A stretch of DNA of 5,111 nucleotides from a virus (Duplodnaviria > Heunggongvirae > Uroviricota > Caudoviricetes): IMG/VR virus record IMGVR_UViG_3300029504_000052; one strand, written 5' to 3'. The notes below the pieces were generated by a model that did no database searches, was not told the origin of the DNA, and saw only the letters and a program-made list of their open reading frames with translations. The translations under genes and the position numbers were made by a program. Position 1 is the first letter of the stretch. Every line of letters begins with the position of its first letter. Of this stretch, positions 900 to 5,111 are shown piece by piece.

Positions 900-1189
900 T
901 GGTGAATTTACGTAAAGCGGCTAAAGGCCAGATGTGCCAGATCAGAATCCCTGGCTACTGCAATCACAATCCCGAAACCTCTGTGCTGGCGCATTACAGG
1001 CTGGCGGGGACGTGCGGAACAGCGACAAAACCACACGATATGCAGGCGGCGATAGCCTGTAGCTCATGCCACGATCTAATCGACGGGCGGGTAAAAACCA
1101 GCGATTACACCAAAGAAGAATTGCGCCTGATGCATGCTGAAGGGGTTTTTCGCACACAAGAAATCTGGAGAAAGAAAGGTCATTTATGA
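899..1189 (+). CDS. ybcO: YbcO-like DUF1364 protein (putative small nuclease, 96 aa)
   Basis: 96 aa with four cysteines (CQIRIPGYCN ... CSSCHDL), matching my recollection of DLP12 YbcO in size, Cys pattern and position just upstream of Q. Start overlaps the upstream stop (TAATG) and stop overlaps the Q start (ATGA). Confidence 0.8.
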   Translation: MVNLRKAAKGQMCQIRIPGYCNHNPETSVLAHYRLAGTCGTATKPHDMQAAIACSSCHDLIDGRVKTSDYTKEELRLMHAEGVFRTQEIWRKKGHL

Positions 1190-1728
1190 TTTACCCAACG
1201 AATACAGGAAAAAGCGGAGAACACCTTCGCCTCACCACGCTGGAAAGTGTCTGGATTCAGGGAAAACTACGTATGTGGGGGCGCTGGTCGTATATTGGCG
1301 GTGGCAGGTCAGGGAATATGTTCAATCAGTTGTTGGCATCCAAAAAACTGACGAAAACAGCCATTAATGAAGCCCTGCGCAGAATGAAAAAAGCGGGAAT
1401 AGAGAAAGCTGAGCTGGAAGCGTTTTTGCGAGAGATGATCAACGGCAAGCAAAAGAGCTGGCTGGCGCATTGTACTGATGCAGAGGCGTTATGTATTGAT
1501 CGAGTCATAAGTGAGGTGCTGGCAGAGCATCCAGGATTGATTTGCATTCTCCGGCAACGCTATGAAGGGCGGGGGATGACTAAGCGCAAAATGGCTGAAT
1601 TGCTAAATGATGCACACCCAGAGTGGTGTTTTAGCACATGCGAAAAACGGATTGCTAATTGGTTAGCTGTTGCTGAGTATGCCCTATATATTCCCATGCG
1701 TGAATCATTTGCTGAGAAAATGGCTTGA
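1186..1728 (+). CDS. Late-gene antitermination protein Q family (180 aa)
   Basis: Last gene of the coupled nin cluster, followed within about 80 bp by a strong intrinsic terminator (the classic Q / pR' / tR' arrangement) and then by a lysis cassette. Contains a W-G-x-W segment (LRMWGRWS) reminiscent of Q-family proteins. Which Q subtype (lambda, 21 or 82) cannot be decided by eye. Confidence 0.7.
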   Translation: MIYPTNTGKSGEHLRLTTLESVWIQGKLRMWGRWSYIGGGRSGNMFNQLLASKKLTKTAINEALRRMKKAGIEKAELEAFLREMINGKQKSWLAHCTDAEALCIDRVISEVLAEHPGLICILRQRYEGRGMTKRKMAELLNDAHPEWCFSTCEKRIANWLAVAEYALYIPMRESFAEKMA

Positions 1729-2181: not shown

Positions 2182-2713
2182 GGGCTGGTTTATTGTATGC
2201 CAAATGATTATTAAAAAGGTTGTGTTAATAACAAAATCCGAAATAATATGCCTGCATATTTTTATCTTGCTTATATTCTGCATATTGTGCATAGCAGGCT
2301 CATCCCTGCAATCAAAACTGTATGATGAGTATTTTTTGTTTTCCTTTTTTCCAGTCATCTGATGATGACCTGCTTCTTTTTAATCCGGATCGACATCAGT
2401 TTTTTAAGATAATTCCTGCGAGTTATATGCATAAATACCACAAACTCCGCATTTTATGTGGTTGGGAGTTGCCGGGCGCGCAGTGAGTTTGCTAAGAAAA
2501 CTCCTGCATGGTGAATCCCCCTGTGCGGTGGGGTGATACCATTAACCTTTTCTGTCGCCGACAGGTATCACGAACATTTTGTTCACCGGGAGGCACCCGG
2601 CACCATGCACTTCAATAGATTCTCTCCACATTATGGATATTCTTTCAGAATATCCCACGCAGACTTTGTGTAAATGTTAACAAATGTGCGTTTTATTTGA
2701 TCTGATTCGCTGT

Positions 2714-2743
2714 TTGAGCGTCCAAAACAACGGTATATATAAT
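2714..2743 (+). promoter_or_regulatory. Candidate sigma70 promoter of the TolA-III-like lipoprotein cassette
   Basis: TTGAGC at 2714-2719, an 18-nt spacer, then a perfect TATAAT at 2738-2743 inside TATATATAAT, about 30 nt upstream of the ATG at 2773. A GAGGAA ribosome-binding site sits at 2765-2770. Confidence 0.4.
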
Positions 2744-2772: not shown

Positions 2773-3201
2773 ATGGGTTTTCGTAGCGCATCAATTCTTA
2801 CGTTGATTATTAGTGGGATTATTATCGGGTGCACTGATGCTGTATCGACAAATTATCATGACCGTACATCATATTACTCCGATAAAGCAATAGAGACACA
2901 GTATGTGAGTTCATCTGAACGTACTTCTGATGTTAGTGAGGATATCCGTCTGTATGCCCATCAAATCAAGAGCGCCATCGAAAAACAGTTCGGGGATGCG
3001 AGTAAGTATTCAGGAAAAGAGTGTACACTGAGAATGCATATGGCCCCGAATGGCCTTCTACTGGAGGTTAAAAGAGAAAGTGGAGACCTCGATTTATGTC
3101 GTGAAGCGATGAATGCGATAAAGAATGCTGATATACCTGCCCCCCCTTCGCCGGAAGTATATAAAGTATTTCAAAATGGGGTGCTGGATTTTAAACCCTG
3201 A
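2773..3201 (+). CDS. Prophage lipoprotein with a TolA C-terminal (domain III)-like domain, paralog 1 (142 aa)
   Basis: N-terminus MGFRSASILTLIISGIIIGC is a type II signal peptide with lipobox IIGC and Thr at +2, predicting outer-membrane sorting. The C-terminal ~80 residues (YAHQIKSAIEKQFGDASKYSGKECTLRMHMAPNGLLLEVKRESGDLDLCREAMNAIKNADIPAPPSPEVYKVFQNGVLDFKP) closely parallel my recollection of the E. coli TolA C-terminus, including both Cys and the terminal LDFKP. Confidence 0.85.
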   Translation: MGFRSASILTLIISGIIIGCTDAVSTNYHDRTSYYSDKAIETQYVSSSERTSDVSEDIRLYAHQIKSAIEKQFGDASKYSGKECTLRMHMAPNGLLLEVKRESGDLDLCREAMNAIKNADIPAPPSPEVYKVFQNGVLDFKP

Positions 3202-3351: not shown

Positions 3352-3747
3352 GTGGGATTAAAGAAAATCGTTATGTTGACTTTTTGGGTCGGTTTTGTTG
3401 CGGGATGCACACCTTTACACCCTTCAGATTGCCACAAAACTACTGCTACAGGTAGTTGCAGTTCAGGACGCTGGGATGATCAGGATGAATGGGGGGCGCA
3501 AGCGCGGGGAATCAGAGCTGCAATTAATGCCAAACTTGATGAGCCGCATAACTGGAAAGGGAAAAAATGCAGGTTGCATATGGAATTCTCTCAGGATGGC
3601 ACGGCGTTAAAAATATCTACCAGTAACGGTGATAAAGCCTATTGCGAAGCGATAAAGTCCGCAGCTCATAAAGCCAAATTTCCGGCCTTCAACAATCCGG
3701 AAGTCTACAGAGATTTTCAGAAATCTGGCTTTGACATGCGAGGTTAG
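3352..3747 (+). CDS. Prophage lipoprotein with a diverged TolA-III-like domain, paralog 2 (131 aa)
   Basis: GTG start at 3352 with an AGGAG ribosome-binding site at 3341-3345. Signal peptide MGLKKIVMLTFWVGFVAGC has lipobox VAGC and Thr at +2. The C-terminal domain (GKKCRLHMEFSQDGTALKISTSNGDKAYCEAIKSAAHKAKFPAFNNPEVYRDFQKSGF) keeps the two-Cys spacing and the PEVY..FQ motif of paralog 1, at roughly 30% identity by eye. Confidence 0.8.
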   Translation: MGLKKIVMLTFWVGFVAGCTPLHPSDCHKTTATGSCSSGRWDDQDEWGAQARGIRAAINAKLDEPHNWKGKKCRLHMEFSQDGTALKISTSNGDKAYCEAIKSAAHKAKFPAFNNPEVYRDFQKSGFDMRG

Positions 3748-3872: not shown

Positions 3873-3895
3873 AGCTCGCTACGGCGAGCTTTTTA
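3873..3895 (+). terminator. Candidate rho-independent terminator closing the lipoprotein cassette
   Basis: AGCTCGC - tacg - GCGAGCT followed by TTTTAT: a perfect 7-bp stem and 4-nt loop, about 125 bp after the paralog 2 stop. Confidence 0.5.
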
Positions 3896-3998
3896 TATTG
3901 CATCGTCTCCAGCATATATATCAATTAAGGCTCTGATTGATGTGTCTGAAAGCCTACACATAATAACTATGCCATCCGTTCCGTGCGGAGGTGAGGCT

Positions 3999-4214
3999 AT
4001 GAAATCCATGGACAAAATTTCAACAGGCATTGCCTACGGCACCTCCGCAGGCAGTGCTGGCTACTGGTTTTTACAGTTGCTCGATAGAGTAACTCCGTCA
4101 CAGTGGGCTGCAATCGGTGTGCTGGGTAGTCTGGTATTTGGCCTGCTGACGTACCTGACAAACCTTTATTTCAAGATTAAAGAAGATAAGCGCAAGGCTG
4201 CGAGAGGTGAATAA
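3999..4214 (+). CDS. S: Class II holin (pinholin), phage 21 S21 type, with dual-start motif (71 aa)
   Basis: [71 protein letters not shown] is near-identical to my recollection of S21 / EssD. Met1 and Met4 give the antiholin/holin dual start. GGAGGTGAGG ribosome-binding site at 3987-3996. The stop overlaps the endolysin ATG (TAATG). The ORF-track extension back to 3942 uses a GTG and is not the real start. Confidence 0.9.
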
Positions 4215-4343
4215 TGCCTCCATCATTACGAAAAGTCGTTGCTGCTGCTATTGGTGGCGGAGCAATTGCTATAGCATCAGTGTTAATCACTGGCCCAAGT
4301 GGTAACGATGGTCTGGAAGGTGTCAGCTACATACCATACAAAG
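4214..4343 (+). pseudogene. R: SAR endolysin (R21-type lysozyme), N-terminal fragment cut by IS2
   Basis: [47 protein letters not shown] matches the Gly/Ala-rich SAR domain and N-terminus of the phage 21 endolysin as I recall it. Homology stops abruptly at about 4343, where the IS2 terminal inverted repeat begins. The 105-aa track ORF 4214..4531 is a chimera reading into IS2. Confidence 0.85.
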
Positions 4344-5111
4344 ATATTGTTGGTGGATTTGCCCCTATATTTCCAGACATCTGTTATCACTTAACCCATT
4401 ACAAGCCCGCTGCCGCAGATATTCCCGTGGCGAGCGATAACCCAGCGCACTATGCGGATGCCATTCGTTATAATGCTCGAACGCCTCTGCAAGGTTCTTT
4501 GCTGCCGTTAACCCGTCTGGTTTGGGCATGATACTGATGTAGTCACGCTTTATCGTTTTCACGAAGCTCTCTGCTATTCCGTTACTCTCCGGACTCCGCA
4601 CCGCCGTGTTCTTCGGTTCAAGTCCCAACATCCGGGCGAACTGGCGTGTTTCATTAGCCCGGTAGCATGAACCATTATCCGTCAGCCACTCCACTGGAGA
4701 CGACGGAAGATCGTTGCCGAAGCGGCGTTCCACCGCTCCCAGCATGACGTCCTGTACTGTTTCACTGTTGAAGCCGCCGGTAGTCACCGCCCAGTGCAGT
4801 GCCTCACGATCACAGCAGTCCAGCGCGAACGTGACACGCAGTCTCTCTCCGTTATCACAGCAGAACTCGAACCCGTCAGAGCACCATCGCTGATTGCTTT
4901 CTTTCACGGCCACTCTGCCTGTATGTGCCCGTTTCGATGGCGGTACAGCAGGTTTTCGCTCAAGCAACAGCGCATTCTGGCGCATGATCCGGTAAACACG
5001 TTTGGCATTGATCGCAGGCATACCATCAAGTTCTGCCTGTCTGCGAAGCTGCGCCCATACCCGACGATAACCATACGTGGGCAGCTCTCCGATAACATGG
5101 TGTATACGGAG
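4344..5111 (-). mobile_element. IS2 (IS3 family) insertion sequence, partial; continues past the window end
   Basis: TGGATTTGCCCCTATATTTCCAGACATCTGTTATCACTTAACCC at 4344-4387 matches the reverse complement of the IS2 right terminal inverted repeat as I recall it. It is followed on the minus strand by the IS2 orfB (InsD) transposase. Confidence 0.9.
4365..5111 (-). CDS. insD: IS2 transposase OrfB (InsD), C-terminal ~250 aa; N-terminus lies beyond the window
   Basis: Minus-strand translation ...[52 protein letters not shown]...[19 protein letters not shown]...CLEI is the DDE integrase/transposase of IS2. The frame stays open upstream of the track's Met (5021) to the window edge, so the true start is outside the window. 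Stop at 4365-4367. Confidence 0.9.

Follow-up and report, generated by a model that had tools for sequence, protein, structure and literature searches.

The late-gene region of an Escherichia coli/Shigella lambdoid prophage, recorded in IMG/VR as IMGVR_UViG_3300029504_000052 and analysed here as one stretch of 5,111 nucleotides (the window, to whose full length all positions refer), carries two small genes, ORF1 and ORF2, each encoding a predicted outer-membrane lipoprotein that ends in a domain III of the TolA type (TolA-III). Among the periplasmic hubs through which colicins and filamentous phages enter, TolA domain III is the one studied best. We propose that the two proteins act as decoys or competitors tethered to the outer membrane, giving the cell tolerance to Tol-dependent bacteriocins and/or filamentous phages, and we put the probability of this reading at about 0.5. 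The initial annotation had described ORF1 alone and had suggested for it either a decoy role, with colicin tolerance or Ff exclusion, or a modulation of Tol-Pal and vesiculation; several of the results below make the decoy role more plausible. The second TolA-III lipoprotein gene, which it overlooked, starts 150 bp further downstream. The two genes and their parts are located as follows.

2773-3201, plus strand: ORF1, 142-residue predicted outer-membrane lipoprotein with a C-terminal TolA domain III
2773-2832, plus strand: ORF1 signal peptide, residues 1-20, lipobox IIGC; Cys20 is the predicted lipidated residue and Thr stands at +2
2833-2934, plus strand: ORF1 Ser/Thr/Tyr-rich linker, residues 21-54 (34 residues), predicted to be disordered
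2935-3198, plus strand: ORF1 TolA-III, residues 55-142, with the elements alpha1, beta1, beta2, alpha2, alpha3 and beta3
3352-3747, plus strand: ORF2, 131-residue predicted outer-membrane lipoprotein with a diverged TolA domain III; GTG start after GAGGAG
3409-3474, plus strand: ORF2 linker, residues 20-41 (about 22 residues), with two extra cysteines, C27 and C36, and pLDDT below 50

ORF1 begins with an ATG that has GAGG 4 nt upstream. Its N-terminus, MGFRSASILTLIISGIIIGC followed by TD, consists of a basic n-region (R4), the hydrophobic core SILTLIISGII and the lipobox IIGC at residues 17-20, with Thr at +2, so that the 142-residue reading frame and the predicted lipoprotein described by the initial annotation are borne out. 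The pattern by which lipoboxes were recognised here, [LVI][ASTVI][GAS]C located in the first 15-35 residues and preceded by a basic n-region and a hydrophobic core, is present in both the ORF1 and the ORF2 signal peptides. The lipobox cysteine is unchanged in all 19 of the 19 aligned homologues, which cover both subfamilies. According to the +2 rule, Asp at +2 is the Lol-avoidance signal that retains lipoproteins in the inner membrane; a lipobox without Asp at this position therefore predicts Lol-dependent sorting to the outer membrane. Asp at +2 is found in none of 58 full-length (100-175 residues) lipobox-bearing representatives of the family.

The assignment of the C-terminal part of ORF1 to TolA is far beyond chance. 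Residues 49-140 match the Pfam family PF06519 ('TolA C-terminal') with E=2.4e-23 and 82.6 bits, against a cut-off of 25, over profile positions 4-96 of 96, and a phmmer search of the PDB with residues 55-142 returned E. coli TolA-III (1s62, 3qdp, 2x9a and 1tol) at E=5e-28. In a gapless alignment with residues 334-421 of TolA, 52 of 88 residues are identical (59%). The match to a near-canonical domain III, with both disulfide cysteines and the terminal LDFKP, had been correctly recognised from the letters, and the profile search and structural superposition proposed in the initial annotation bear it out; the accompanying estimate of identity at about half of the positions was slightly too low. 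The disulfide pair is represented by C84 and C109, equivalent to C363 and C388 of TolA, and these two cysteine columns are invariant in every family alignment made. In the AF2 model, the pLDDT is about 90 or higher throughout residues 55-142, whereas it falls below 50 from about residue 18 to residue 51. When the model was submitted to Foldseek, the top matches were all E. coli TolA-III, the best being 2x9a_B with a TM of 0.96 and a root-mean-square deviation of 0.6 Å over 88 columns; the lower-ranked matches were more distant TolA and TonB C-terminal domains. The linker of ORF1 is the segment that varies most within the family.

The signal peptide of ORF2, MGLKKIVMLTFWVGFVAGC followed by TP, contains K4 and K5, the core IVMLTFWVGF and the lipobox VAGC at residues 16-19, again with Thr at +2. 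ORF2 matches PF06519 with E=1.3e-14 and 54.6 bits (cut-off 25) and TolA-III in the PDB with E=5e-9; it is 34% identical to TolA and 32% identical to ORF1. Its AF2 model adopts the TolA-III fold, with a first helix from residue 41 and a pLDDT above 90 from about residue 51, and its disulfide pair is C73/C98. The ORF2 linker, TPLHPSDCHKTTATGSCSSGRWDD, including C27 and C36, is kept across genera, in contrast to the variable linker of ORF1, and by its appearance it looks like a functional element.

Both genes are intact wherever they could be followed. The comparison covered 81 related loci (80 IMG/VR prophage contigs and one Shigella flexneri genome): all 81 have an intact ORF1, the 78 that reach ORF2 all have that gene intact as well, and only a few single substitutions occur across the set. 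ORF1 variants that are 65-74% identical retain the frame, the lipobox cysteine and the domain. Compared with a 66%-identical variant, ORF1 has a dN/dS of 0.36 overall, 0.24 in the domain and 0.50 in the signal peptide and linker, and for ORF2, compared with its pO157 and Citrobacter homologues, the value is 0.11-0.12 (0.14-0.18 over its N-terminal portion, about 0.07 over the domain). These comparisons indicate that ORF1 and ORF2 are functional genes under purifying selection.

Current database records present them differently. In NZ_CP021726.1, the RefSeq/PGAP annotation flags window positions 2941-3201 (L001:13242-13502) as a tolA pseudogene, 'incomplete, missing N-terminus', and begins ORF2 at 3373, seven codons late (3373-3747; L001:13674-14048). 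The late start removes the basic n-region of the signal peptide; the GTG start proposed here brings back the basic n-region MG[LV]KK that is common to the homologues. Elsewhere in the databases, small proteins of this kind go under the name 'cell envelope integrity protein TolA'. ORF1 matches the NCBIfam models of full-length TolA only at positions 293-386 of 387 and 265-362 of 362. Against PRK09510 (full-length TolA), ORF1 scores 107.8 and ORF2 53.7 bits for a cut-off of 213; against TIGR02794, ORF1 passes the cut-off of 59.45 with 75.6 through its C-terminal part alone, and ORF2 fails with 47.2. Since the models are matched at the C-terminal part only or below their cut-offs, the RefSeq name is not justified. 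Indeed, both proteins lack the N-terminal transmembrane helix that couples TolA to TolQ and TolR, in place of which they have a cleavable lipoprotein signal peptide, and they lack the long helical Ala/Lys/Glu-rich domain II, in place of which they have a short linker with no predicted helix. By profile, fold, disulfide and beta3 pattern, ORF1 and ORF2 are TolA-III domain proteins and not TolA orthologues. The pseudogene call and the name TolA conceal a family of stand-alone TolA-III proteins that is catalogued (in Pfam, under PGAP names and as a PHROG) but not understood.

This family is widespread on mobile elements. The two-gene cassette is present at an identity of at least 99% in 775 of 5426 complete E. 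coli genomes (14%), and some part of the cassette region is matched in 1340 of the 5426 (25%), mostly as ORF2-like plasmid copies and diverged ORF1 variants. The cassette moves as a module with the 3' part of the small RNA STnc100 and the holin gene, downstream of at least two distinct antiterminator regions, including that of the isolated phage mEp460_ev081. ORF1-type proteins were found in E. coli and Shigella only and are always encoded in the prophage slot between the Q-like antiterminator gene and the holin gene, sometimes without ORF2 and beside other accessory genes ('morons'). The 66%-identical ORF1 variant, P0028, stands alone in this slot, with no ORF2, in the E. coli prophages L006-L008; the morons adjoining it encode an AraC-type regulator, a TfpB-family protein and, in L008, a NanS-p-type esterase. 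ORF2-type proteins extend across Citrobacter, Enterobacter, Klebsiella, Raoultella and Serratia and are also found on chromosomal islands. At 80-90% identity, they are encoded on about 600 plasmid records. Genes of this type lie directly 3' of the nikA-nikB relaxase genes on IncK2/Z and MPF_I-type (IncI-like) plasmids, and on pO157 one lies downstream of psiB-psiA-hok. Three plasmid copies (L103:6965-7396, L104:3555-3986 and L010:5815-6246) are about 88% identical and, as annotated, 143 residues long.

More distant relatives are found on Klebsiella plasmids in two further settings. On IncF plasmids, they stand beside a secreted protein with a thioredoxin fold; in NZ_CP018818.1 (IncFIB/IncFII, L011:5229-6258), for example, a secreted DsbA/TraF-like protein is encoded directly 5' of a 144-residue TolA-III lipoprotein, and it may be a dedicated oxidoreductase for the TolA-III disulfide. 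On 10-12-kb ColRNAI bacteriocin plasmids, the gene for a 123-residue TolA-III lipoprotein overlaps the start of a gene for a 121-residue TonB C-terminal domain with an ordinary signal peptide, and the pair adjoins genes for a colicin-like bacteriocin (with a tRNase domain), its immunity and lysis. The pair of Klebsiella pneumoniae NZ_CP028801.2 (10,060 bp; L009:5099-5832), whose TolA-III member has the lipobox LTAC, recurs on many near-identical plasmids. With such a pair, one bacteriocin plasmid seems to carry a stand-alone copy of each import hub.

In all, a TolA-III reading frame is present on 1307 plasmid records. A profile hidden Markov model search of 1.84 billion cluster representatives yielded 555 relatives; among the best 150 of these, 98 are no longer than 175 residues and a lipobox can be recognised in 61. 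Ordinary signal peptides are found instead in a minority of the stand-alone proteins (P0227, P0261, P0296 and P0211), which implies that lipid-anchored and soluble periplasmic versions are both natural. A scan of genome contigs with a closer family alignment gave 11 loci, too few to describe a distribution. The family is common in prophages and almost absent from sequenced free phages: by tblastn, either gene was detected in one of 50,697 deposited phage genomes, that of mEp460_ev081, and the BFVD library of viral structures contained no significant match to the TolA-III fold.

How might such proteins protect their carriers? After lipidation at the lipobox cysteine and Lol-dependent sorting, they would reside in the inner leaflet of the outer membrane, with the linker (about 34 residues in ORF1 and about 22 in ORF2) hanging the TolA-III domain just beneath it. 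The domain would thus be placed where TolB-Pal resides and where colicin translocation domains and the filamentous-phage protein g3p first emerge. There it could capture, by beta-strand augmentation, the TolA-binding epitope of an incoming group A colicin, another bacteriocin or g3p; within the same decoy view, it might instead compete for the N-terminus of TolB. By either route, the invader would not be passed on to the energised native TolA, and the lysogen would be tolerant. Having neither the membrane anchor nor domain II of TolA, the proteins cannot couple to TolQR or transmit force.

The residues through which TolA is bound lend some weight to this proposal. In TolA-III, the beta3 edge A415-K420 (with the backbone amides of D418 and K420) and alpha1 bind the N1 domain of g3p, colicin N and the N-terminus of TolB (PMC4339652; PMC7391070), and colicin A uses beta2 residues L375-P380 together with K368, K379 and K396 (PMC3365938). 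The beta3 strand and C-terminus of ORF1 read GVLDFKP where TolA has APLDFKP, L417, D418, F419, K420 and P421 being identical, and in alpha1 I348 is retained together with most of QIKSAIE. The colicin A site on beta2 is largely preserved: LLDIKP (L375-P380) is replaced by LLEVKR, K379 and K396 are kept and K368 is a His. In ORF2, the beta3 sequence SGFDMRG keeps only the pattern hydrophobic-Asp-hydrophobic-basic. In an alignment of 34 diverse stand-alone members, beta3 and the C-terminus form the most conserved segment, with a mean frequency of the major residue of 0.71 as compared with 0.34-0.61 elsewhere. As these proteins cannot pull on TolB, such conservation suggests that ligand capture at beta3 is what selection maintains.

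Reported affinities for TolA-III are 1.3 µM for the colicin A translocation domain, about 1-3 µM for that of colicin N, about 12 µM for g3p-N1 and about 4-200 µM for TolB. Given that the invaders bind more tightly than TolB, a decoy could work without crippling Tol-Pal. The kinds of element that carry the family, namely conjugative plasmids, bacteriocin plasmids and prophages, all stand to gain from a decoy. The structure 2x9a, which gave the best Foldseek match, is that of the g3p of phage IF1 bound to TolA-III. Filamentous phages are drawn to the pili that conjugative plasmids produce, IF1 to I-type pili, so that plasmids encoding pili would have a reason to carry a TolA-III decoy.

Several observations weigh against this proposal. 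ORF1 differs from TolA at the colicin A site (K368H and P380R) and, in alpha1, carries N338R and N339L within a stretch implicated in colicin N specificity, and ORF2 lacks all three of the lysines engaged in cation-pi contacts with colicin A and ends in FDMRG. With several contact positions changed, binding to any given colicin or g3p cannot be assumed. Neither ORF1 nor ORF2 has a match in the PADLOC library of defence proteins, and PHROGs places the family in phrog_5772, of 'unknown function'. A tethered TolA-III would be expected to compete for TolB as well, which could be costly, and the filamentous phages concerned, Ff and IF1, infect only cells with matching pili, which most lysogens may not have. 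The promoter-like site upstream of ORF1 is a consensus match, from a scan that gave 11 sites as compared with 7.0±2.2 after shuffling and is thus barely enriched. Moreover, the genes lie within the Q-dependent late unit, ahead of the lysis genes, and their main expression could be lytic, in which case a role in lysis or vesiculation would fit at least equally well. For ORF1 and ORF2, the location in the outer membrane, activity of the genes in the lysogen, the binding of ligands and any protective effect are all properties that we infer.

The position of the genes may accordingly be read in another way, namely that they serve the phage itself by modulating Tol-Pal. Expressed at a high level from the Q-dependent late transcript, shortly ahead of S, R and Rz, the two proteins would titrate the N-terminus of TolB, Pal would not be redeposited on the peptidoglycan and the outer membrane would be loosened; this could aid the final step in lysis or increase vesicle release and leakage, tolerance to colicins and phages being a side effect. 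The location directly upstream of the holin gene, within the late operon, is what such a role would predict. However, no lysis cassette lies near the relatives carried by conjugative plasmids, bacteriocin plasmids and chromosomal islands, and the secreted TonB C-terminal domain that accompanies some of them is hard to square with loosening of the outer membrane. In the present prophage, moreover, the cassette is intact and under purifying selection next to a lysozyme gene destroyed by IS2. TolB binds TolA-III weakly (dissociation constant about 4-200 µM), and ORF1 has a Gly at a TolA tyrosine linked to TolB binding by genetic evidence, if the residue called 'Y352' corresponds to Tyr353 here, a mapping that is uncertain. 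Taken as the principal function, modulation of Tol-Pal therefore appears unlikely to us. The two roles are not exclusive and may simply correspond to weak expression in the lysogen and strong expression on induction.

A decoy or blocker might also be directed at another ligand, TolA-III serving as a general module of beta-strand augmentation for some other component of the periplasm or outer membrane, for example an injection protein of tailed phages, a partner in conjugation or entry exclusion, or an undescribed TolA-dependent effector. ORF2 is the likelier candidate for such a role: its identity to TolA-III is only 34% and the lysines of the colicin A site are gone, yet it combines a strongly conserved Cys-containing linker with a very low dN/dS; its plasmid relatives lie beside relaxase and transfer genes. 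The 32% identity between ORF1 and ORF2 likewise suggests different targets. On the other hand, none of the searches made returned a candidate ligand, and ORF1 keeps the binding strands of E. coli TolA down to the exact LDFKP end, which points to ligands that evolved for E. coli TolA. For the pair as a whole, we regard a different ligand as distinctly improbable. Finally, the idea that ORF1 is a non-functional remnant, a 3' fragment of tolA acquired by the phage, as RefSeq treats it on the strength of the PGAP pseudogene flag over window 2941-3201 and in keeping with a match to the C-terminal end of PRK09510 under the cut-off (107.8 versus 213 bits), is scarcely credible for a complete gene with its own start, Shine-Dalgarno sequence and a lipoprotein signal peptide foreign to TolA, intact in 81 of 81 loci with a domain dN/dS of 0.24, whose 65-74%-identical variants keep frame, lipobox and domain and whose architecture is found again in dozens of clusters at 50% identity.

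Returning to the proposed decoys, it is tempting to speculate, with somewhat less than even confidence, that the family as a whole constitutes an unrecognised class of defence on mobile elements, in which free-standing ligand-binding tips of the two energy transducers of the envelope, TolA-III mostly as an outer-membrane lipoprotein and sometimes a TonB C-terminal domain secreted into the periplasm, act as decoys that catch Tol- or Ton-dependent bacteriocins and filamentous phages short of the energised host protein. Prophages, pilus-encoding conjugative plasmids and bacteriocin plasmids would each shield their host cell in this way. If so, a quarter of complete E. coli genomes would carry an immunity by 'import-hub mimicry'. 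This would be a new kind of broad bacteriocin immunity acting at the level of import, and a new principle of superinfection exclusion, in which a periplasmic host hub is mimicked instead of a surface receptor being blocked. The response of strains to colicin- and phage-based antimicrobials and to M13-type vectors would be affected. The proteins would also provide natural variants for dissecting the ligand specificity of TolA-III and perhaps for tuning Tol-Pal and vesicle output.

The two proteins can be compared with several known systems. They share the Pfam family, the fold and the disulfide pair with E. coli TolA-III (P19934, residues about 325-421; PDB 1s62, 1tol, 2x9a and 3qdp/3qdr), to which ORF1 is 59% and ORF2 34% identical; unlike E. 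coli TolA, they are encoded by a prophage, outside the tol-pal operon, and are predicted to hang from the outer and not the inner membrane. Recombinant periplasmic TolA-III is said to confer colicin tolerance and outer-membrane leakiness, reportedly a finding of Levengood-Freyermuth, Click and Webster in J Bacteriol in 1993. That protein was likewise a stand-alone periplasmic, dominant-negative competitor, but a soluble, overexpressed laboratory construct, whereas the family of ORF1 and ORF2 is natural, predicted to be lipid-anchored, diverged from the host copy and borne by mobile elements.

Cor (of phages phi80, N15 and HK022) and Llp (of T5) are phage-encoded outer-membrane lipoproteins that inactivate FhuA and thereby exclude phages and colicins. 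ORF1 and ORF2 resemble them in being small, phage-encoded, predicted outer-membrane lipoproteins with a plausible protective role against phages and colicins that share one entry route; however, Cor and Llp block a receptor in the outer membrane, whereas ORF1 and ORF2 would mimic a periplasmic import hub and act on the invader. No relation in sequence or profile to Cor or Llp was detected, the Pfam and PHROGs searches returning TolA/TonB-type families and phrog_5772 only. Exclusion by g3p is a further near precedent in functional terms: g3p or its N1 domain in the periplasm sequesters TolA and makes cells colicin-tolerant and resistant to superinfection, periplasmic g3p-N1 rendering them resistant to colicin A and lowering the uptake of fd by 4 logs (PMC10424213). 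The same interface between TolA-III and g3p-N1, the same principle of titration and the same expected phenotypes (colicin tolerance and a block of Ff uptake) are involved, in mirror image, since in g3p exclusion an overproduced ligand occupies TolA, whereas the proposed decoy would be a TolA-domain copy occupying the ligand. A search of the full-text literature, covering open-access papers only, so that absence is not proof, found no study of a prophage- or plasmid-encoded TolA-III protein, and natural, horizontally moved TolA-III copies with a predicted outer-membrane anchor are not discussed in that literature.

The surroundings of the two genes in the window are as follows.

300-899: DUF1367 gene (profile match)
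899-1189: YbcO-family gene (profile match)
1186-1728, plus strand: DUF1133/Q-like late antiterminator gene, upstream border of the slot (Pfam DUF1133, E=2.5e-107; Phage_antitermQ, 26.1 bits)
2476-2662, plus strand: STnc100 prophage small RNA (RF02076), full-length (cmscan 86.6 bits, gathering score 47, E=2.9e-18)
2714-2743, plus strand: sigma-70 promoter-like site TTGAGC-18-TATAAT (consensus scan, 10 of 12), 30 nt 5' of the ORF1 start
3873-3898, plus strand: intrinsic terminator-like hairpin AGCTCGC-TACG-GCGAGC with a T-run, between ORF2 and the holin gene, closing the two-gene cassette
3999-4214, plus strand: S21-type holin gene, downstream border of the slot (Pfam Phage_holin_2_1, E=4.5e-35; RefSeq name essD)
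4214-4355, plus strand: rrrD-type lysozyme gene, 5' fragment of 142 bp; the alignment to an intact rrrD locus ends at 4355
4354-5111, minus strand: IS2, right end and tnpB, continuing beyond the window edge (NCBIfam 'IS2 transposase TnpB', E=1.8e-157)

The DUF1367, YbcO, DUF1133/Q-like, S21-type holin and rrrD-type lysozyme genes confirm the prophage setting that had been read from the window at the outset. The tnpB gene of IS2 lies on the minus strand at 4365-5021. The rrrD-type signal-arrest-release (SAR) lysozyme gene is broken by IS2 after codon 47, at about 4355, which implies that the prophage is defective in lysis; both TolA-III genes upstream of it are intact.

Lambdoid phages carry a number of morons in or near the late region, among them stx and nanS-p (both between Q and S), nmpC (DLP12), and bor and lom (phage lambda). 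ORF1 and ORF2 share with these the slot between the Q-like antiterminator and S21-type holin genes, a frame of promoter- and terminator-like signals, carriage behind at least two different Q genes and a lower G+C content (42-46% as compared with 47-50% in the flanking phage genes), all of which would fit accessory genes of a lambdoid prophage, the promoter being a consensus match. They differ from the morons just named in their cargo, a mimic of a host envelope domain in two diverged copies. The site at 2714-2743 is a weak candidate for a promoter active in the lysogen. The region upstream of ORF1 is unrelated to that of the 66%-identical variant, so that an alignment of the two is uninformative as to conservation of the promoter. 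An apparent record of expression in PMC11125564 (32-fold induction by ciprofloxacin of 'EDL933_2012', taken as TolA) was discarded, because the table of that paper names the gene 'Tail fiber protein'.

A spacer of about 1 kb, in which no tRNA genes were found, separates the Q-like gene from ORF1. STnc100 ends about 110 nt 5' of ORF1, and it is its 3' part, from about 2582, that moves with the ORF1-ORF2-holin module into phage mEp460_ev081. This small RNA is related to the PasD small RNAs of Shiga toxin (Stx) phages (2026 preprint). About 80 nt 3' of the Q-like gene, at 1805-1840 on the plus strand, the spacer contains a strong hairpin, AAAAAAACCGCTTAATGCGGTTTTTTT, with flanking A- and T-runs, which is absent from the list produced by a simple scan. 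A second promoter-like site at 2099-2128 and a terminator-like hairpin at 2156-2175 may represent a candidate late promoter and its terminator.

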